From Bdellovibrionota bacterium (GTDB lineage: Bacteria > Bdellovibrionota_C > UBA2361), in the NCBI GenBank assembly GCA_044352465.1, contig JBILDU010000065.1, positions 1-17,725 of the forward strand: DNA of 17,725 nt. The letters run 5' to 3'. Under the pieces are notes generated by a model that worked only from the letters and a program-made list of their open reading frames with translations, was not told the origin of the DNA and searched no databases. The stretch's first letter is position 1. Every line of letters starts with the position of its first letter. Shown here one piece after another: positions 2,895 to 15,330 of this stretch. The position numbers were made by a program, and so were the translations under genes.

Positions 2895-3533
2895 ATGTCG
2901 AGCATGATGGCTATCACTCAACGCTTTATCTCAGAGCACCCGAGCATTAAGGATTGTCTCCGGCGGGGCCTCGTGAACTATTCAGCGCTTGCGCGCCTTA
3001 TCTGTGAGACTCGTGGAGTCGATAAGTTTGAGGCCGTCCTCATCGCTCTGCGCCGCCAGCATACCCTGATAAAAAACCAACTACCGCAGGAGAAGAGGAT
3101 TATCACCCTTCTCAAGCGTGCCAAGATTCGACTCCGAAACAAAATGATGGTCGCGATCGTCGAGAAGCCGTCCGACTTCGAGCGGGTATACGAGATTCAA
3201 AAAAGGATCAAGAAAGATCGCGGCGACTTTCATCTCATCGAAGGAGAGGAGGTGATCACGATAATCTCCAACTCCGACTATGTCTCTGACGTCAAAGATA
3301 CCTTTCGGGGAAAGGTAAAGAAGATCACGGGGGACCTCGCCCAGCTCACCATGATCTTCGATGAGAAGATCGAAACAACTCCGGGGGTCGTCTCTTTTAT
3401 CTACGGGCTCCTCGCCGACAATTCTATCAACGTCTGGGAGGAGATGAGCTGCTGGACCGATTTTATGGTGATTATTGAGCAAAAAGACGCCGCTCGCGCG
3501 ATGCGAGTCTTAAGCCTCGAGGAAGAGGCTTAG
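2895..3533 (+). CDS. ACT-domain protein with an N-terminal HTH-like segment; putative amino-acid-sensing transcription regulator
   Basis: ATG at 2895 has GGAG upstream, so the ORF-track start at 2850 is probably too long; 212 aa. N-terminal helical segment EHPSIKDCLRRGLVNYSALARLI; C-terminal aspartokinase-type ACT signature TPGVVSFIYGLLADNSINVWEEMSCWTDFMVII. Confidence 0.75.
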   Translation: MSSMMAITQRFISEHPSIKDCLRRGLVNYSALARLICETRGVDKFEAVLIALRRQHTLIKNQLPQEKRIITLLKRAKIRLRNKMMVAIVEKPSDFERVYEIQKRIKKDRGDFHLIEGEEVITIISNSDYVSDVKDTFRGKVKKITGDLAQLTMIFDEKIETTPGVVSFIYGLLADNSINVWEEMSCWTDFMVIIEQKDAARAMRVLSLEEEA

Positions 3534-3565: not shown

Positions 3566-4615
3566 ATGAATAAGTTACAGCTCGATAAGATCGCTTCCTC
3601 GACCAGGAATTCAAACCTTCAACGTGAGGTGACGGTCACCGACGACATCGTGTCGAAGGAGGGTTACATTATCGCGGTGCGGGCGCTGACGGAGAAGAGC
3701 ATTTACAACACCGTCGAGCTGACCCCCGGCCGCATGAGTCGAATCTGTCAAGGCGATGTGATTGCCGGGGTGCTCGGCGCCCGCAATGCGCTCAAGGGCT
3801 ACAGCGGTGTGGTTCCGGAATCGCTTCACGTGGGGGACGTGCTCCAGATCTTGAACCTCGGTGCCGTTATTGGTCGCTGTACGAGCGACAACCCCGAGCT
3901 CGGCAGACCGATCGACGTCGAGGTCTTGGGTGCCGTGCTTTATTTCCCGTCTTTTCAGCACCGCATCGGGAAGCAAGCGAGCATTCATTCGGGGCCGGTC
4001 CACCCGACTGATACGCTGACCCACGCAGCGCCGCTGGTCATCGTCTCAGGGACCTGCATGAGCGCCGGAAAGACCCGCGCCGCATGCGAGATCGTGAAGC
4101 AACTCGCCCACTCGGGTAAAAAAGTTGCGGCCGCCAAGCTCTCCGGCATCAGTCTTCGGCGCGACACCCTCGAGATGCTTGATTTCGGCGCCACCGCTAT
4201 CTACGACTTCACCGACGCTGGCATCGTCTGCACGACCCCTCGCAACGTGGTGCAAGCAGCGAAAGGAATCGTTACGGCCCTCACGGCGCTGAACCCTGAC
4301 TGCATCGTCCTCGAACTCGGGGATGGGATTATGGGTGAGTACGGGGTGATGAATCTCCTCTCCGATAAGCAACTGATGGCGCATGTGAGGGCCCATGTTC
4401 TCTCAGCGAACGATCAGGTAGGCGCATGGGGAGCGGTGCAGTTTCTGGAGGGGAAATGCCCGCCGATCGATATCATCTGCGGACCGGCGACCGATAATCT
4501 GGTGGGCAAGCGCTTTATCAACGACAAGCTCGGCCGCTGCGCTTTGAACGCCATCAAGGACTCGGCAGCTCTCGGCGAAGCGATCGCGGCAAAACTTTTT
4601 CCTGGGGAACTATGA
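3566..4615 (+). CDS. DUF1611/DgcN-like P-loop protein, function unknown (candidate glutamate N-acetyltransferase)
   Basis: 349 aa with a beta-rich N-domain, deviant P-loop VIVSGTCMSAGKT, AAAKLSG, DFTDAG and Walker-B-like IVLELGDG. Its stop overlaps the argC start (ATGA, 4612-4615). CDS is solid; family is recalled from motifs; function is inferred. Confidence 0.7.
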   Translation: MNKLQLDKIASSTRNSNLQREVTVTDDIVSKEGYIIAVRALTEKSIYNTVELTPGRMSRICQGDVIAGVLGARNALKGYSGVVPESLHVGDVLQILNLGAVIGRCTSDNPELGRPIDVEVLGAVLYFPSFQHRIGKQASIHSGPVHPTDTLTHAAPLVIVSGTCMSAGKTRAACEIVKQLAHSGKKVAAAKLSGISLRRDTLEMLDFGATAIYDFTDAGIVCTTPRNVVQAAKGIVTALTALNPDCIVLELGDGIMGEYGVMNLLSDKQLMAHVRAHVLSANDQVGAWGAVQFLEGKCPPIDIICGPATDNLVGKRFINDKLGRCALNAIKDSAALGEAIAAKLFPGEL

Positions 4616-5622
4616 ACGTTGGGATCATCGGCGCATCGGGGTACGTGGGCTTAGAGCTTCTCCGGCTCTTAGCACTTCATCCCCATTTTAAGGTCACGTG
4701 GGTCACCTCACGTGAGCACCAGGGAAAAGCGGTGAGCTCGGTCCACACAGCGCTCCGCGGCGTCTATGACATCCCCTTCGCCGATTGCAGCACGCTGCCC
4801 CCGAATCTTGATATCGTCTTTCTGGCGGTGCCTCACGGCGAATCGATGCGCATCGCGGCCGAATTACGGGCGCAAGCGCCTCAGCTCAAGATTATCGACC
4901 TGGGCTCCGATTTTCGGTTAGACGCCGCAACCTACGAGGCGACATACCACCATCCCCACACCGCTCCAGCGCTGCTTGAAACAGCCGTCTACGGCACTCC
5001 GGAGATCTGCCCCGAAAGGATCGCCCAAAGCACTCTCGTAGCCAATCCAGGTTGTTTCGCCCACTGCATCATCTTAGCAACGGCGCCCCTGGCAAGGGCC
5101 AGGCTCATCGACGGGCGGATCAACATCGCGGCGGTGACAGGTTCCTCAGGTAGCGGTGCTCAAGCCACGCCAAGGACCCATCATCCCGAGAGAAACGAGT
5201 CGTTGAGCGCCTACCAGGTGCTGAAGCATCGCCACGTCCCAGAGATCGAGACGACCCTATCTCAGTGGGAGAGGCCGGTCGCCATCGATTTTGTCCCGAT
5301 CTCCGGGCCGCTCTCGCGGGGTATCTTTGCGACCTCGTTTGTTCCCCTCACCGATCGCACAGCTGATATCGAGTCGTGCTACGCCGAATTTGCCGAGATG
5401 AACCCGTTTATCCGGATCCGCACGGAGACACCTCGCTCACTCGAGGTGCGGGGCTCTAACTTCGTCGATATCTCCGTGCATCGCTCGGGCAACACCGCGG
5501 TTATCGTGAGTACACTTGATAACCTCGTCAAAGGAGCCGGCGGTAACGCGATTCAATCCGCCAATCTCATGAGTGGACTCCCCCCAACAACGGGACTTCT
5601 CTCCCCACCCCTTTTCCCGTAA
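4612..5622 (+). CDS. argC: N-acetyl-gamma-glutamyl-phosphate reductase
   Basis: GASGYVG nucleotide-binding loop, catalytic ANPGC, SSGSG, HRHVPE and DNLVKGAGGNAIQ. Confidence 0.95.
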   Translation: MNVGIIGASGYVGLELLRLLALHPHFKVTWVTSREHQGKAVSSVHTALRGVYDIPFADCSTLPPNLDIVFLAVPHGESMRIAAELRAQAPQLKIIDLGSDFRLDAATYEATYHHPHTAPALLETAVYGTPEICPERIAQSTLVANPGCFAHCIILATAPLARARLIDGRINIAAVTGSSGSGAQATPRTHHPERNESLSAYQVLKHRHVPEIETTLSQWERPVAIDFVPISGPLSRGIFATSFVPLTDRTADIESCYAEFAEMNPFIRIRTETPRSLEVRGSNFVDISVHRSGNTAVIVSTLDNLVKGAGGNAIQSANLMSGLPPTTGLLSPPLFP

Positions 5623-5633
5623 CGGAGCGTTTC

Positions 5634-6827
5634 ATGGAACCAACCTTCAGCGACATCAAGACAATCGAGGATGCCTATCAACTGAAGACCTATTCGAAAT
5701 TTCCACTCGCGATCGAACGGGGTGTGGGCGCCTATGTCTTTGACTCAGCGGGTAAGCGCTATCTCGATTTTTATGGAGGCCACTGTGTCACCGTCACCGG
5801 GCACTGCCATCCCCACATCGTCGGGGCGATAAAGAATCAGGCGGAGAAACTGATCTTTTACTCGAACATCGTCTATAACCAAACCCGCGCCACCGCCGCC
5901 AAGGCGCTCGTCGATTTCGCTGCCAATGGCATGTCGCAGGTCTTTTTCTGTAACTCTGGAGCGGAAGCGAACGAAACTGCGATCAAAGCGGCGCGTCGGC
6001 ACACGGGGAGATCCACTGTCATCAGTATGATCCACGGCTTCCACGGGCGCACGTACGGGGCGATGAGCATCACCGGCTTTCCGAAATATCGGATCTTTCC
6101 CCCGATGCTCCCCGCTACCGTGCACGCCGAGTTCGGCTCGATCGAGGCCATCGAAGCGATCGTATCTCGAGAGAACAGCGATGTCGCAGCGATTATTCTC
6201 GAGCCGGTGCAAAGCATGGCCGGGGTAAAGATGGCGGCGCCGGCGTACTACCGGGATCTCCGCGGGCTCTGCGACAAGAACGGCATCGTCCTTATCTTCG
6301 ACGAGGTCCAAACCGGCTTCGCTCGTACCGGTGCACCGTTCTTCGGTGATCATGTCGGTGTCACCCCGGACCTCATCACCTGCGCCAAGGGGATTGCGAG
6401 CGGAGTGCCCATGGGTGCGGTGATCTTCTCCCCTACCATAGCTTCAAAGATCGGTCTCAGCGAACACGGTGCCACCTTCGGCGGCTCCCCGATCGCATGC
6501 GCCGCTGCCACGGCAAGCCTTGAGGTAATTATCAACGAGCGTCTCGCCTCTCGAGCTAAAGAGCTTGGGGCTTATCTCGCTTGCTCGATTCAGGAGCTGA
6601 AGCTACCCCACCTTATCGAGGTGCGGGGGATCGGGCTTCTGCTTGGGCTCGCATTTGACTGCGAAGCGAAGAAACTGATCCCTGCTCTCCTCGAGGAGGG
6701 GGTCATCATCGGCTCCTCGGAGGACCCCAACGTGCTCCGTCTCATCCCCCCACTCACCATCTCTCAAGCTCACTGCGATGAGTTTTTAACCGCTCTTGTC
6801 CGCGCGAGTGAGAGGGCTTTTGCCTAA
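5634..6827 (+). CDS. argD: Acetylornithine aminotransferase (class III PLP-dependent)
   Basis: FFCNSGAEANE, FHGRT, IFDEVQTGFARTG, the PLP lysine in AKG, and HGATFGGSP; arg operon context. Confidence 0.92.
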   Translation: MEPTFSDIKTIEDAYQLKTYSKFPLAIERGVGAYVFDSAGKRYLDFYGGHCVTVTGHCHPHIVGAIKNQAEKLIFYSNIVYNQTRATAAKALVDFAANGMSQVFFCNSGAEANETAIKAARRHTGRSTVISMIHGFHGRTYGAMSITGFPKYRIFPPMLPATVHAEFGSIEAIEAIVSRENSDVAAIILEPVQSMAGVKMAAPAYYRDLRGLCDKNGIVLIFDEVQTGFARTGAPFFGDHVGVTPDLITCAKGIASGVPMGAVIFSPTIASKIGLSEHGATFGGSPIACAAATASLEVIINERLASRAKELGAYLACSIQELKLPHLIEVRGIGLLLGLAFDCEAKKLIPALLEEGVIIGSSEDPNVLRLIPPLTISQAHCDEFLTALVRASERAFA

Positions 6828-6835
6828 GGAATGAT

Positions 6836-7780
6836 ATGTTTGAACGAAGCTTAACCCGGGTAACAGATCTGACGCCCCTCGATATCCAGCGAGTGCTCAC
6901 GAAGGCCTTTAGCTTTAAGCGAAAACACGAGGAAGGGGTACGGCGCGAAAATGTCCTCGATGGGAAGGTCGTCGCCCTCCTCTTCGAGAAACCCTCGCTG
7001 CGAACCAAGGTCGCTTTTGAGGTCGCGACCCACTATCTCGGGGGCCAGCCGATATTCCTGTCGAGCTCCCAGATCCTCGCGAGCGGTGGTAACGAGCGGG
7101 GTCGCGAGTCGATCCCCGATATCGCGCGTAATTTAGAGCGTTTTTGCGATCTCATCGTCGCGCGGGTGTATCATCACGAGGTGATCGATGAGATCGCTCA
7201 AGCCGTCCGTACGCCGGTTATCAATGCGCTCTGCGACAAACATCACCCCACCCAGGCGCTGGCCGACCTGATGGCGATCCAATCGGTGGTGAAAAAGGAT
7301 CCGCGCGATATCTCCGTCGCTTTTGTCGGCGACGGAAATAACGTCGCGACCTCCCTCATGCAGATCTGCCTGATAAGCGGAATCAACTTTCGTATCGCGA
7401 CACCGGGGGGCTATGAAATCCCCTTGGTCGAGCATAAGGTGGGGGAATATCTCGCCCGGGGTAGTGGTGCAACGTACGCCGCCGTTCACGACCCTGCGGA
7501 AGCAGTACGAGGTGCGGATGTCGTTTACACCGATACCTTTACCTCGATGGGACAAGAAGGGGAAAAGGCGGCACGGAGCGCCGCTTTCGTGGGTTATCAG
7601 GTGAACGCGGATCTCATGGGGCTTGCATCGCGGGAAGCCGCCTTTATGCACTGCCTGCCCGCTCATCGGGGAGAGGAGGTTACAGACGAGGTGATGGATT
7701 CTCCTCAGTCGATCGTCTTCGATCAGGCGGAGTGTCGACTCCATGTGGCCAAAGCATTGATTGCATCGTATCTATCGTAG
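6836..7780 (+). CDS. argF: Ornithine carbamoyltransferase
   Basis: FEKPSLRT carbamoyl-phosphate motif, HPTQALAD, GDGNNV, DTFTSMGQE ornithine loop and HCLPAHRGEE. Confidence 0.95.
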   Translation: MFERSLTRVTDLTPLDIQRVLTKAFSFKRKHEEGVRRENVLDGKVVALLFEKPSLRTKVAFEVATHYLGGQPIFLSSSQILASGGNERGRESIPDIARNLERFCDLIVARVYHHEVIDEIAQAVRTPVINALCDKHHPTQALADLMAIQSVVKKDPRDISVAFVGDGNNVATSLMQICLISGINFRIATPGGYEIPLVEHKVGEYLARGSGATYAAVHDPAEAVRGADVVYTDTFTSMGQEGEKAARSAAFVGYQVNADLMGLASREAAFMHCLPAHRGEEVTDEVMDSPQSIVFDQAECRLHVAKALIASYLS

Positions 7781-7797
7781 ATCAAAGAGGGGGACTG

Positions 7798-8706
7798 ATG
7801 GACCGGATGAAAGCCTTAACCGAGATCTTACCGTACGTTCGAGAGTTCGTTGGGCGGACATTTGTCGTAAAGATCGGAGGAGAGATCTGCTCCGGGAACT
7901 ATCTTGCCGGGATCGCCGAACAGGTCAGCCTCCTTCATCACATGGGTATTAAAGTCGTGCTCGTCCACGGCGGTGGCCCCCAGATGGACGAACTTCTCGG
8001 TGAGCTCGGGCTTGAACCTAAAAAAGTGGCTGGTCGTCGTATCACCGACACCCCGACGCTACGGGCGGCAAAGATGGCGTTCAAGGGGGTGCTCAATACC
8101 GATATCGTCGCAGCATTAAAGACCCACGGCGCGCTCGCGGTCGGACTCTCGGGCGCTGACGGTAGCATCATCATCGCCGAAAAGCGCCCGCCGACAAGGG
8201 GAAAGGCGGAGTCGGGCGAAATCGTTACCATCGACTACGGGCACGTCGGTGAAATCGTGGTCGTGAATCCGAGCCTCATACAGACACTCTTAGGGCAAAA
8301 CTATATTCCGGTGGTCTGCTCCCTCGGAATCGGCGCAGACGGTGCTCTTTACAATATCAACGCTGACACCATCGCCGCTGAGCTCGCTCGAGCAGTATCA
8401 GCGGCGAAACTTGTTCTCATGACGAACGTCCCAGGACTTCTACGTGACATCAAAGACCCAACGAGCCTCATCTCCTACACCGACATCGCATCGCTCTCAA
8501 ATATGGTCAAAGACGGAGTCATTAAAGATGGCATGCTCCCCAAGATCGAGGCGTGCATATCAGCGGTGCAGCGCGGTGTCTCACGCACCCATATCGTCGA
8601 CGGCACCCGCCAGAACTCCCTTCTGCTTGAGCTTTTCTCTAATGAGGGCTGCGGCACGATGATCGTTGATACCGACGAGAAGCGGCACTATGAAGCCTCA
8701 AGCTGA
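7798..8706 (+). CDS. argB: Acetylglutamate kinase
   Basis: ATG at 7798 with AGAGGGGG upstream (the track start at 7732 overlaps argF). Motifs VVKIGG, VHGGGPQ, GRRITD, NINADTIA, MTNVPG, GMLPKI and ELFSNEGCGT. Confidence 0.95.
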   Translation: MDRMKALTEILPYVREFVGRTFVVKIGGEICSGNYLAGIAEQVSLLHHMGIKVVLVHGGGPQMDELLGELGLEPKKVAGRRITDTPTLRAAKMAFKGVLNTDIVAALKTHGALAVGLSGADGSIIIAEKRPPTRGKAESGEIVTIDYGHVGEIVVVNPSLIQTLLGQNYIPVVCSLGIGADGALYNINADTIAAELARAVSAAKLVLMTNVPGLLRDIKDPTSLISYTDIASLSNMVKDGVIKDGMLPKIEACISAVQRGVSRTHIVDGTRQNSLLLELFSNEGCGTMIVDTDEKRHYEASS

Positions 8707-11608: not shown

Positions 11609-13552
11609 ATGACGAATTACGACCCCGGCTTGGATCGCCCCGGCGATCGAGCCGACTTATCCCAATTATCAATTCCCCGTAATCGCTCTCCGCTGCCGCC
11701 GGCTAAGCGAGCGCTGACGTTTGAGATCAACCCCGAGTGTAAATACTTTGTCTCATGCGTAGACACCGAGCGAGCGCTCGAGCCGTGGATCAAGAGTATT
11801 GGGGAAAAACTTGGCAAAAGACCTGAGGAGATACTCCCCACTTTGAAGCCGCTCTACGAGGATTTCGTCGGAAAGGTCATGGGGCAAATCAACGGCTGTG
11901 GCTTCCAAGTGATCTTGCTGCCGTCACGTATCCTTGAGACCAGGCTTCGCGATAATACGAACGGTCTTTTCACGGTTTCTTTGAACGCGGGGGATGCATG
12001 GTGCGATTTCCGGCTCGAACTCTCTCGTCGATTCGACAGCGCGGGTAAAGAGCTGCTTGGGATGACCGCACGCCCGGGGGCTCCAACCATCGAGGAGCAG
12101 CTCACTGCACTGCGCGCGCAGCTCGAGCGCCGCGGAATAAAGAGCATATGCCTCGTCGATGACCACGCTTTCTCCTGCCGCACTCTCGAAAGTGCGGTCG
12201 AGGCGCTCGAGTCGATAGGCATTGGGGTAAGCCAGATCGCCGTTCTCTCTCAGGTCGGAGATTCGGCTGTGCTAGCTCGCCGAGGAATTCCGATTATTCC
12301 GGCATGTCGCTTCGTTGGCCCAGAGGGGGCGTCGGTCCTCGACTGCGTTGAGTTAGTTGAGGCGCGGTATTTCCTCCTCGGGAGTGCTGGCTGTGTGGTC
12401 GACCTCGGAGGTGGAGTGAAAGGCCGCGCGCCGTACCTCCTGCCCTTCGCCGATCCGACGAACCGAGCGAGTATTCCACCGGAGCGCGCAGTAGCATTCT
12501 CAATCACGGCTCTGCGTTACAACGCCGAATTCTTTGCTGCTATCGAACGTGAATTTGGGGTGAGGTTAACAGCAGCTGATGGGCGTGCCGATGCGACTAC
12601 GGTTCTCGAGCGGTATGGTATCGAAGCCGCTCAGCCGCTCCAAGAAGCCGCTGAGAGTGTCGCCAAACGCCTCGAAGCAGGTCTCCGTGAAGGAGGTCCG
12701 TGGTCCAACGCCTCTCCCCGCAGGGCAGAGGAATTGGGGCAGGCCCTGCGGGCGGCCAACCTTCCACAGCGGTGTCTCTTTCTTGATGTGAACGGAACCC
12801 TGATCGAGCGCGGACAGTCGGGGATCGCTGCCGGGGCGGAGGAGCCCTTAAAGGCTGAGATCCGACGGCTTCAAGGGCAAGGGGTCGCGGTGGGGTTGTG
12901 TTCCGATAGTCCCGGGATTCCCCTTCAGAGGCTCGCTCAGCAACTCGGTATGCGGGGTCCGATTCTGGCGGAGAATGGGAACTTACTCCTCACCGACCGG
13001 GATTCCGTGGTGCTCACTCCCCTACCAAATCGTGCGGAGCTCGAAACGCAAATTCGAAGCATCGCCCGCGCAAACGGGATCACCGAGGAGCCCGCGATGG
13101 AGGCGGTCGATTTTGGTGGCTCACCACCCGATCTGCGTGGTCGCTTCGCCTTTGGGCGAGGCCGACAGACCTCGGTGGCGTGCTTTGGAGACCCCAGATT
13201 CATCGCCCGACTTGAGTTAGTAAGCCGTGAGCAGGGCTGGGCTCAGACGTTCGGCGTGAGCCTCGATTGCAATCCCAACTGGGGACCGTACGGGGTCGCG
13301 ATAGCGCACCCCGGGAGCGCCGTGGTCGCGGGCAAGGGCATGGCCCTCGATCTTTTGACTCGCTATGGTATCGAGCGATCGTGGATCATCGGTGACGGTG
13401 CTGCCGATTGTATCGAGGGCAATAGCAAGGTGAGAAGTTTTCTCGTGGGGCAGCTCGGCTCCCCGCTTGGAGCACGGGCTGCGCGAGCCACCCCACAGGC
13501 GGGACTTGCAGCGGTAATCGAGCTTATGAATGAGGTCAGCAAGGAGGCGTAG
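11609..13552 (+). CDS. Fusion protein: type I phosphoribosyltransferase-like domain plus Cof-type HAD hydrolase domain
   Basis: 647 aa. PRPP-loop-like ICLVDDHAFSCRTL near nt 12146-12187. HAD motif I FLDVNGTL near nt 12780, motif II GLCSDS, ILAENG, Lys in GKG and motif IV IIGDGAAD. Confidence 0.7.
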   Translation: MTNYDPGLDRPGDRADLSQLSIPRNRSPLPPAKRALTFEINPECKYFVSCVDTERALEPWIKSIGEKLGKRPEEILPTLKPLYEDFVGKVMGQINGCGFQVILLPSRILETRLRDNTNGLFTVSLNAGDAWCDFRLELSRRFDSAGKELLGMTARPGAPTIEEQLTALRAQLERRGIKSICLVDDHAFSCRTLESAVEALESIGIGVSQIAVLSQVGDSAVLARRGIPIIPACRFVGPEGASVLDCVELVEARYFLLGSAGCVVDLGGGVKGRAPYLLPFADPTNRASIPPERAVAFSITALRYNAEFFAAIEREFGVRLTAADGRADATTVLERYGIEAAQPLQEAAESVAKRLEAGLREGGPWSNASPRRAEELGQALRAANLPQRCLFLDVNGTLIERGQSGIAAGAEEPLKAEIRRLQGQGVAVGLCSDSPGIPLQRLAQQLGMRGPILAENGNLLLTDRDSVVLTPLPNRAELETQIRSIARANGITEEPAMEAVDFGGSPPDLRGRFAFGRGRQTSVACFGDPRFIARLELVSREQGWAQTFGVSLDCNPNWGPYGVAIAHPGSAVVAGKGMALDLLTRYGIERSWIIGDGAADCIEGNSKVRSFLVGQLGSPLGARAARATPQAGLAAVIELMNEVSKEA

Positions 13553-13558
13553 TCAAAT

Positions 13559-14518
13559 ATGATAGACCAGAGCAACCCCACAATCGTGATCGACACCGAT
13601 CCAGGCGTCGATGACATTCTGGCGATTTTCTTTGCCCTTGGATCGAAGGCTGTGCAAGTGGCTGGATGCACCACCTGCATGGGCAATGCCCCCCTCGATA
13701 TCGTCACTCGAAACCTCGCCTTCGCACTCGGAGCTGTAGGTCATGAATCGGTGCCGATTTACACCGGAGCCGCCGCGCCGTCGAATCAAGCCCCGGTTTG
13801 GGCATCGACACACGGAGTTCAGGGACTCGGCCGAATTGTGCCTGACCCTTTTCCGATACCGACTGCCGGGAGTGCGCGTGATAAGTTCACTCGTGGGGCC
13901 GCGCTCCCCTATCAACTCGTGGCGCTCGCCCCTTTAACGAATATCGCCCAGGCGCTGAGCACAGACCCGCGGTGTTTCGATCGATGCAGCCGACTCATCA
14001 TCCTCGGTGGAGCTATCACTGCCCCGGGAAATAAAAGCGCTGTAGCTGAGTTCAACTTTTTCTCCGACCCGGAGGCAGCGGATGCGGTGCTCGCGCAGTG
14101 CCCGTGTCCGATCACACTCATTCCGCTCGACCTGTGCTATACTGCTGTCATTGCTCTCAGCGATCTCGAACGGGTGGAGGACCCAGAGTTTCGTTCCTTC
14201 TTGATGCACCTGTGCGAACCGTACGCCGTGGGGGGCGAACGGGAGGAGGGTATTCCCGGAATAATCCTCTACGATCCGCTCGCTGTCTTTGCGGCGATCG
14301 CACCAGACGCCTTCACCTATACCCCCGCAGCAGTTCGGGTCGACACCGGCCAGAGCCACGCCCGCGGGATGAGTGTAGCGGATCGCCGCCTTCGCTCAAC
14401 GACCCCGCCAAACGTCACCGTTGCAACCGCGGTGGATTTGGCTGCTTTCAGAGCCTCGTTCTTCGCAGCCCTGAATCGCCTGCGCTATGCCCCGCGCTAT
14501 CGTTTCCGCGTCACCTAG
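13559..14518 (+). CDS. Nucleoside hydrolase (IU-NH/Rih family)
   Basis: DTDPGVDD Ca/ribose motif, HGVQGLG, ALAPLTNIA, GNKSAVAEFNFFSDPEAA and LYDPLAV. SD AAGGAGG lies in the end of the upstream gene; 6-nt gap. Confidence 0.92.
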   Translation: MIDQSNPTIVIDTDPGVDDILAIFFALGSKAVQVAGCTTCMGNAPLDIVTRNLAFALGAVGHESVPIYTGAAAPSNQAPVWASTHGVQGLGRIVPDPFPIPTAGSARDKFTRGAALPYQLVALAPLTNIAQALSTDPRCFDRCSRLIILGGAITAPGNKSAVAEFNFFSDPEAADAVLAQCPCPITLIPLDLCYTAVIALSDLERVEDPEFRSFLMHLCEPYAVGGEREEGIPGIILYDPLAVFAAIAPDAFTYTPAAVRVDTGQSHARGMSVADRRLRSTTPPNVTVATAVDLAAFRASFFAALNRLRYAPRYRFRVT

Positions 14519-14715: not shown

Positions 14716-14722
14716 TATGAAC

Positions 14723-14959
14723 ATGATCATCAAGAACATCTCCGAAGCGAAAGCCGAGCTCTCAGCACTCCTTGAGCAAGTTCTGAAGGGAGAGGAGGTG
14801 ATTATCGGGAAGGCCGGTGTCCCGATCGCGCGGATAGTCCGCTACAGCGGACTTGAACGCGCTCGAACTCCGGGCGCTCTTCGGGGAAAGATAACGATCG
14901 CACCCGATTTCGATGAACTTCCAGACGATATTGCAGAGTCGCTTGGAGTAAAGCCGTGA
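14723..14959 (+). CDS. vapB: Phd/YefM-family antitoxin (VapB-type)
   Basis: NISEAKAELSALLEQVLKGEEVIIGKAGVPIARIV and C-terminal GALRGKITIAPDFDELP. ATG 14723 is preferred over 14717 because 14717 is only 2 nt from the -10 box. Confidence 0.88.
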   Translation: MIIKNISEAKAELSALLEQVLKGEEVIIGKAGVPIARIVRYSGLERARTPGALRGKITIAPDFDELPDDIAESLGVKP

Positions 14960-15330
14960 GATATCTCCTCGATACGCACATCCTCCTCTGGTGGCTCGCT
15001 GATTCCTCCGACCTCACAAAAAGCGCGCGGGAGACGATATCGAAACGGGAAAACTTCGTGATGGTGAGTGCCGCCTCGATCTGGGAGATTCGCATCAAGC
15101 AAGGGATCGGAAAGATTCAGCTTCCCCCCGATTTCGAAGTGATCGTGGCGGAGGCTCCGTTTGAGCATCTCTCTATCACCTCGCGTCACGCTCACGCGGT
15201 CTTTGAACTCCCGCTTCACCACCGCGACCCGTTTGACCGACTCCTTATCGCACAAGCTCAGTGCGAAAACTTAACGCTTCTTACCCACGATCGAAACCTT
15301 GCGGTGTACGATGTGGGAGTCGCGTTTTAA
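14956..15330 (+). CDS. vapC: PIN-domain ribonuclease toxin
   Basis: GTG start overlapping the antitoxin stop (GTGA); LLDTHILLW, SAASIWEI, HRDPFDRLLIAQA and LLTHD. Confidence 0.93.
   Translation: MRYLLDTHILLWWLADSSDLTKSARETISKRENFVMVSAASIWEIRIKQGIGKIQLPPDFEVIVAEAPFEHLSITSRHAHAVFELPLHHRDPFDRLLIAQAQCENLTLLTHDRNLAVYDVGVAF

Follow-up and report, generated by a model that had tools for sequence, protein, structure and literature searches.

The first step of arginine biosynthesis, the N-acylation of L-glutamate, has so far been credited to GNAT enzymes or to ArgJ. The described starters include ArgA, bifunctional ArgJ, S-NAGS and BT3761; the last is a Bacteroidetes GNAT, given in the available part of PMC7311316 as a probable N-succinylglutamate synthase paired with a succinyl-type ArgF'. 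The gene considered here (3566-4615, + strand; 349 aa, ATG start) lies in a 17,725-nucleotide stretch of DNA from a Bdellovibrionota bacterium (GenBank assembly GCA_044352465.1, contig JBILDU010000065.1), which as a whole is called the window. It encodes a predicted non-GNAT N-acyl-L-glutamate synthase, the target protein, which has the same proposed reaction and operon role as these four enzymes and a fold unrelated to theirs. On balance, comparative analysis makes it probable that the target is a non-GNAT enzyme that opens the arginine pathway by N-acylating L-glutamate, with succinyl as the probable acyl group.

The same role has been predicted, without experiment, for the Steroidobacter protein ACG33_RS14135 (UniProt A0A127FCT3) in the available text of the GapMind 2026 preprint. 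The grounds given in that text are that the ACG33_RS14135 gene almost invariably sits in arg operons (argB, C, D, F', G, H and argR), that its homologues never occur alongside ArgA homologues, that the protein has weak Foldseek similarity to 7XRJ (DgcN), and that neighbouring ArgF' proteins carry A, P, S, V or T at position 92, the first four residues accounting for 90% of 70 such proteins. Because all of these hallmarks hold for the window's family, the two families are very probably one, an assignment judged by common hallmarks. The systems nevertheless differ: the window's operon has a classical ornithine carbamoyltransferase (OTC) and a tandem-ACT gene, whereas the preprint's system has ArgF' and argR, and exclusion was tested against ArgA of P. 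aeruginosa in the preprint and against ArgJ here. As far as the preprint's available text goes, the starter-enzyme idea is not new, having been independently predicted there, and the novelty that a preliminary description of the window had attached to the candidate synthase falls away. The core of that description, that a non-orthologous enzyme bearing a DgcN-like P-loop starts arginine synthesis, receives good support from the comparative analysis.

Linkage to arginine genes and exclusion of ArgJ

The target is a real, conserved gene. GAGGG lies about 8 nt 5' of its ATG, and 4138 relatives were found at E<=0.001 among 8000 candidates scored. In an exhaustive search of 1.84 billion entries, 1303 cluster representatives (50% identity) matched the family at E<=0.001 and 137 at E<=1e-30. 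The 120 relatives listed are all unnamed or 'hypothetical', and none of them has a precomputed Pfam domain.

Genomic neighbourhoods were compared at 32 orthologue loci, comprising the window, three contigs of metagenome-assembled genomes (MAGs), 13 loci from the window's phylum and 15 from Planctomycetota. Several of these are cut by contig ends; one further locus (L010), with the gene at a contig end, was left out, and seven paralogue loci were analysed apart. Arginine genes adjoin the target orthologue at 32/32 loci: ArgC at 28, ArgF or ArgF' and ArgB at 26 each, and ArgD, ArgG and ArgH at 25 each. ArgR lies directly 5' of the target or of the adjoining argG at 11 loci. Within the window's phylum, the orthologue stands immediately 5' of argC in 14/14 genomes with a strong match. 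In the window itself, the TGA stop of the target (4613-4615) and the ATG of argC (4612-4614) share the letters ATGA at 4612-4615 (+). The target-linked argC is the sole argC over its cut-off in at least four genomes (G051, G035, G056 and G092), and the cluster is therefore the arginine pathway there.

Mutual exclusion with ArgJ was assessed in 96 genomes of the window's phylum, each at least 85% complete, and in a sample of 251 Planctomycetota genomes. ArgJ occurs in 0/14 strong-match genomes of the window's phylum, compared with 49/82 others, and in 0/80 Planctomycetota genomes with a strong orthologue, compared with 110/171 others. In the five Planctomycetota genomes that have both a match and ArgJ, the match is solely of a weak paralogue class. 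ArgJ was also found in 0/4 further genomes reached through the MAG loci, for which completeness is not given. The arg adjacency at every locus, together with the lack of co-occurrence with ArgJ in two phyla, suggests that the target stands in for ArgJ/ArgA-type enzymes. The ATGA overlap with argC, the clustering of homologues with arg genes and the anticorrelation with argJ, which the preliminary description had either noted or made its test, are thus all borne out.

The weak class forms a paralogous subfamily that scores about 200 bits against the profile of A1, an alignment of 67 family members, whereas orthologues score above 335. It falls outside the orthologue clade in a quick tree with Shimodaira-Hasegawa-like approximate likelihood-ratio (SH-aLRT) support, and it has no arg neighbours. 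Five of the seven Planctomycetota genomes with the paralogue only also carry ArgJ. At 2/7 paralogue loci the gene follows M20 hydrolase and flavin-reductase genes (L073 6118-9068 and L077 5447-8269), a context that hints at another N-acyl-amino-acid pathway. Around the 32 orthologue loci, out to about 8 kb, no M20 family is recurrent.

The closest relatives of the target (65-88% identity) come from MAGs assigned to widely differing phyla, in each case on a short contig: L008 and L010 are binned as Gemmataceae, L009 as Woesearchaeota, and L007 is labelled Pseudomonadota. The target is 74-75% identical to the proteins on the contigs binned as Gemmataceae, and these closest relatives nest in the tree within the clade of the window's own phylum. 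This pattern suggests mis-binning, mislabelling or recent operon transfer.

Two long proteins were also noted among family members. In P0185 (626 aa) a family member is predicted to be fused to an amino-acid-kinase (ArgB-like) domain, and in P0234 (687 aa) to a C-terminal piece of ArgC. As products of metagenome gene calling, either could be artefactual; a genuine P0185 fusion would parallel the kinase-plus-acetyltransferase architecture of classical ArgA. In Planctomycetota, long frames of about 708 aa were considered as target-ArgC fusions and rejected as over-extended GC-rich frames, with the target and ArgC matches lying in separate overlapping open reading frames (ORFs).

Fold, conserved residues and proposed reaction

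Structurally, the target consists of two domains. An AlphaFold2 model built on A1 (mean predicted local distance difference test, pLDDT, 97.4) shows an N-terminal all-beta domain at residues 1-132 (3566-3961, +), as assigned by DSSP on the models, and a C-terminal P-loop domain of SIMIBI, BioD/DUF1611-like type at about residues 149-349 (4010-4612, +); hhalign to DUF1611 aligns residues 149-337. Searched with VIA-align against 48161 representative PDB chains, the model gave as top ranks the DUF1611 proteins 2g0t (Z 17.8) and 2obn (Z 16.2), with DgcN (7xrj_A) fourth at Z 15.6. The DUF1611/DgcN superpositions have root-mean-square deviations (rmsd) of 2.7-3.0 A over 178-185 residues (7xrj_A, 3.0 A over 185 residues). 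BioD falls in the same range (3of5, Z 16.1; 1a82, Z 15.4), as does CTP synthase (Z 15.6). The N-terminal domain modelled alone is again all-beta (pLDDT 92.2); it matched no PDB chain at Z >=5, the best being the LexA C-domain at Z 3.7, and it had no Pfam match either.

Five residues are invariant in A1: P84, G168, K169, K191 and E250. The Walker A motif GTCMSAGKT (residues 162-170; 4049-4075, +) has G168 and K169 in 67/67 members and T170 in 66/67, with Ser in the remaining one. Lys191 (4136-4138, +; 67/67) aligns with the lysine after strand 2 of M. tuberculosis BioD, and Asp200 is kept in 65/67 members. Glu250 (4313-4315, +; 67/67) lies in a Walker-B-like ELGDG that corresponds, by hhalign, to EGQGS of DUF1611. 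Conservation extends to the N-terminal domain, where 25 columns are invariant among the 32 orthologues, including the charged residues K8, E51, R56, R73 and E119.

Comparison with DgcN and DUF1611 reveals likenesses confined to one domain: the GTxxxxGK P-loop, the Walker-B-like Glu in E-G/L-x-G, and C-terminal domain Z-scores of 15.6-17.8. On the other side, the target family reads GKT (66/67) where six true DUF1611 proteins read GKM or GKR, its invariant Lys191 is unmatched in DUF1611, and its N-terminal domain, modelled as all-beta, would differ from the Rossmann-like one (PF17396) of the DUF1611 type. DgcN presumably uses acetyl-CoA and D-glutamate. Its context is D-glutamate catabolism, whereas that of the target is arginine synthesis. 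The PDB entry of DgcN, 7xrj, is titled N-acetyltransferase; the available text of the GapMind 2026 preprint calls the protein a 'D-glutamate acetyltransferase', and dgcN appears as the key gene of the D-Glu racemisation pathway in the accessible part of PMC12363236.

BioD shares with the target the canonical GKT and the Lys after strand 2, and D200 and E250 fall at the positions of BioD residues for ATP/Mg and substrate. Those BioD residues, matched by the target's GKT, Lys191, D200 and E250, presumably have ATP/Mg and substrate roles. Unlike BioD, the target has an extra N-terminal domain of 130 residues and a different gene context, and searches at E<=10 (Pfam) and E<=1 (NCBIfam) gave it no BioD/AAA_26 match. 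At the same thresholds it matched no GNAT family; the Pfam search found no ArgJ domain (PF01960) and, at E<=0.01, no family at all.

These features are consistent with a two-domain protein that would acylate the alpha-amino group of L-glutamate, the N-acyl-glutamate then being processed by ArgB, ArgC and ArgD. The conserved N-terminal beta domain would probably hold the substrates, and the P-loop domain would bind the nucleotide part of the donor. This donor could be either an acyl-CoA, as for DgcN, or ATP plus a free acid reacting through an acyl phosphate, as in BioD/Mur-type chemistry. A more specific version, possible though doubtful, makes the target an ATP-dependent amide ligase: succinate would be converted to an acyl phosphate on the BioD/Mur-like P-loop and joined to the amino group of L-glutamate. 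The ligase version is tenable because the Walker A motif is canonical (GKT in 66/67) and Lys191, Asp200 and Glu250 sit at BioD-like positions. If true, it would mean a CoA-independent first step of arginine synthesis.

Acyl group and carbamoyltransferase partners

The partner carbamoyltransferases bear on the acyl group. At 14 related loci scanned, 12 encode the knotted NF003384 type and two an OTC. According to the available part of PMC4581275, knotted N-acetylornithine transcarbamylases carry E92, N185 and K302, whereas knotted N-succinylornithine transcarbamylases carry A/S/P/V/Q, then P, then V/I/E at positions 92, 185 and 302. The X. campestris enzyme, with its E92P and K302A mutant chains, served as the alignment reference for locating these positions. 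In the 22 knotted ArgF' proteins adjoining orthologues, the E92 position holds A in nine, T in five, P in four, S in two, and V and Q in one each, with Glu in 0/22. The N185 position is Pro in 22/22, and the K302 position is V, I or E in 19/22 and K in three. One of the 22, at L034 5691-6716 (-) in genome G051, reads DCLP, and the other 21 read HCLP or HCMP at the family's HxLP motif.

Because the ArgF' partners carry succinyl-type residues, the pathway of the family is usually of the succinyl type, which is known from Bacteroidetes according to the available part of PMC7311316. Judging from these partner sequences, the target family probably makes N-succinyl-glutamate and not N-acetyl-glutamate. 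The preliminary description had proposed a non-orthologous L-glutamate N-acetyltransferase; the starter role is supported by gene linkage and ArgJ exclusion, whereas the acetyl group gives way to succinyl as the probable choice.

A classical OTC is found in the operon of the window and at L007, L008 and L041. OTC-linked rows arise twice in the quick tree, each time inside knotted-ArgF' clades, and the window's protein lies within a nine-row clade (SH-aLRT 99) with six knotted-ArgF' partners. From this clade position, succinyl is the likelier acyl group in the window's operon too.

The window's operon, its genome and the competing explanations

The operon runs in the order tandem-ACT gene, target, argC, argD, argF, argB, with argG and argH divergent. 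Curated models identify argC (4612-5622, +; TIGR01850, 343.8 bits, cut-off 233.6) and argB, the N-acylglutamate kinase (7732-8706, +; TIGR00761, 226 bits, cut-off 151.3). Between them lie argD, the N-acylornithine aminotransferase (5634-6827, +; Aminotran_3, 362.9 bits; TIGR00707, 383.6 bits, under its cut-off of 410), and argF (6836-7780, +), a classical unknotted OTC that scores 350.6 bits with NF001986 (cut-off 306) and 145.5 bits with NF003384 (cut-off 288). On the opposite strand are argH (72-1439, -; TIGR00838, 308.9 bits, cut-off 279.5) and argG (1458-2705, -; NF001770, 495.5 bits, cut-off 334). Curated family models find no argA, argJ or argE within the window, which agrees with the gene inventory first read from the sequence.

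Directly upstream of the target lies the gene for a tandem ACT-like protein (2895-3533, +; DUF7523 plus ACT_7 by Pfam; 212 aa counted from the conserved Met, with the ORF opening at TTG 2850). The target had been taken for the only unassigned enzyme-like gene of the cluster; it is indeed unassigned, but so is this regulatory-looking neighbour. In the window's clade the tandem-ACT gene stands directly 5' of the target in 7/7 loci, at the place of ArgR, and its atlas neighbours are named ACT/ACT. No DNA-binding domain was detected in the protein, which could act as a regulatory subunit that senses arginine or as a replacement regulator. If the target is a ligase, the tandem-ACT protein could be its arginine-sensing partner in the window's clade. 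A predicted complex of the two proteins scored 0.00, a value without bearing on binding.

Elsewhere in the window, a 647-aa protein encoded in the 11609-14518 (+) region has weak HAD/mannosyl-3-phosphoglycerate-phosphatase-like matches (E about 2e-4 to 1e-2), and an inosine-uridine nucleoside hydrolase gene (13559-14518) lies directly 3' of its gene. An 80-aa ORF (14717-14959) precedes and overlaps the gene for a PIN-domain protein (14956-15330, +; PF01850, E 1.2e-16), a layout of VapBC toxin-antitoxin type.

The genome of the window (G000; 94.9% complete) has no ArgJ match anywhere, no ArgA over cut-off or full-length, and no match to the ArgR C-domain; PF04768, the NAT domain, had no match in it either, but the control matched nowhere too. 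By tblastn, argB, argF, argG and argH are present in one copy each and argC in two. The second argC lies on another contig, C7 (90116-91210; L033 8116-9210), and directly 5' of it is a gene for an S-NAGS-like GNAT of 133 aa (89772-90173; L033 7772-8173). The best NCBIfam matches of this GNAT are of NAGS type (NF005840, 88.7 bits; the ArgH(A) fusion NF008964, 72 bits; NF005921, 56.9 bits), all under their cut-offs. Fifteen genomes of the phylum have the GNAT-argC pair, and 14 of them also have ArgJ; the remaining one, G000, lacks ArgJ and has the target cluster instead. Among the 14 target-bearing genomes of the phylum, only G000 has the GNAT, the other 13 giving no match at E<=1e-8. G094, a genome of the same taxonomic family as G000, has argC-argJ and lacks the target. 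The simplest reading is that G000 descends from an ArgJ-type lineage, later acquired the target operon and is now without ArgJ, and the GNAT-argC2 pair looks like a relic of the ArgJ-type pathway. The proposal that the target alone fills the gap in the pathway is therefore only partly sustained: the genome has no ArgJ or full ArgA, but it does encode this GNAT.

Several observations weigh against the target as the N-acylating starter enzyme. According to the wording of the preprint's available text, with the family searched under no other name, no biochemical or genetic test of any member exists. The link to DUF1611 and DgcN is weak, and BioD ties with it at Z 16.1. Against Pfam DUF1611 (PF07755) the target scores 14.8 bits (cut-off 25; E 0.02), its sole Pfam match at E<=10, covering residues 152-189 and profile positions 9-46 of 201; DUF1611 scored 15.4 bits in a six-frame search of the genome. 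The hhalign comparison of A1 with six DUF1611 proteins of the same phylum spans the whole P-loop domain and reaches a probability of 35.8% (E 3.8e-4, 170 columns). The A1 profile matched no DUF1611 chain among PDB sequences at E<=10, giving only P-loop-length matches to BioD, FtsY and MobB, the best of them (BioD and FtsY P-loops) at E 2.2e-4 over profile positions 145-193. The first 50 rows of a Foldseek search against the PDB contained signal recognition particle (SRP) GTPases, BioD, ParA, HypB and ATP synthase and no DUF1611 entry, so the structural link to DUF1611/DgcN rests on VIA-align. The kinship proposed at the outset thus applies to the P-loop domain, which is structurally closest to these proteins; by Pfam's own test the target is not a DUF1611 member.

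The comparative evidence has its own counterweights. Genomes within a phylum are related, so the ArgJ counts overstate independence, and the exclusion would likewise follow if the target did another job in which ArgJ is replaced. Neither ArgJ nor the target is present in about 15 genomes of the window's phylum that do carry argC; other routes therefore exist. In the window itself ArgF is a classical OTC, to which the ArgF'-based argument for succinyl is not directly applicable. With an OTC, N-acyl-ornithine must lose its acyl group before carbamoylation, and no N-acyl-ornithine deacylase could be assigned among the three M20 genes of the genome: one is DapE, one is dipeptidase-like, and the third (C34) is under all cut-offs, with an orthologue in G098 only of five genomes tried and no pattern. 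The S-NAGS-like GNAT beside the second argC is, moreover, a competing candidate for the first step here.

Two alternatives build on that GNAT. In one, which appears improbable, both the target and the GNAT start the pathway, redundantly or in parallel: a horizontally acquired target cluster would lead to N-succinyl-glutamate, and the relic GNAT-argC2 pair would be decaying or serving another N-acetylated route. The genome's two argC genes beside a single argB, argF and argG fit such a history, as do the nearest same-family relative G094, which has ArgJ and no target, the identity to Gemmataceae-binned proteins, and the nesting of the target among rows from other families of the phylum. Against it, a single ArgB would need promiscuity for two acyl types, and target and GNAT are both intact open frames. 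The other alternative, less probable still, has the GNAT make N-acetyl-glutamate and the target deacylate or recycle N-acyl-ornithine or, in ArgF' clusters, N-acyl-citrulline, as a transacylase or nucleotide-dependent deacylase, thus taking over the remaining task of the lost ArgJ. In its favour, G000 is the one genome with the GNAT-argC pair in which the target cluster stands in place of ArgJ; ArgJ, an enzyme defined by ornithine acetyltransfer, is the partner that is strictly excluded; and the window's OTC operon has no assigned deacylase. An expected N-acylcitrulline hydrolase is likewise missing in Steroidobacter, according to the available text of the GapMind 2026 preprint. However, step 1 would then be unfilled in the 13 of 14 target-bearing genomes of the phylum that have no GNAT match. 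A cyclic transacylase, furthermore, would have no need of a canonical Walker A in which Lys and Thr are invariant, the closest structural relative that has been characterised is a glutamate-acylating enzyme, and the target's fold is not known from any transacylase or amidase.

A role outside catalysis seems very unlikely. The target might be an accessory P-loop NTPase that serves a pathway enzyme, for instance as metallochaperone or assembly factor, in the manner of HypB, UreG and ApbC, which are indeed among its structural matches (Z 13.8-14.4). The best structural matches, though, are enzymes (BioD, CTP synthase and DgcN), and the exclusion of ArgJ suggests a catalytic replacement. The strong conservation of the N-terminal domain, with its invariant charged residues, also speaks against an accessory role, and inspection short of a systematic survey of the family showed no conserved Cys/His metal motif.

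If the target is the N-acylating starter enzyme, the first step of arginine synthesis is performed by a large, widely distributed family whose P-loop fold is unrelated to those of GNAT enzymes and ArgJ, and a common gap in metabolic reconstructions of uncultured bacteria would be closed. To the earlier prediction the window adds the exclusion of ArgJ in two phyla, a canonical ATP-type P-loop and an N-terminal domain without a clear structural match. It also adds a derived operon variant in which a classical OTC is present and a tandem-ACT gene replaces ArgR.

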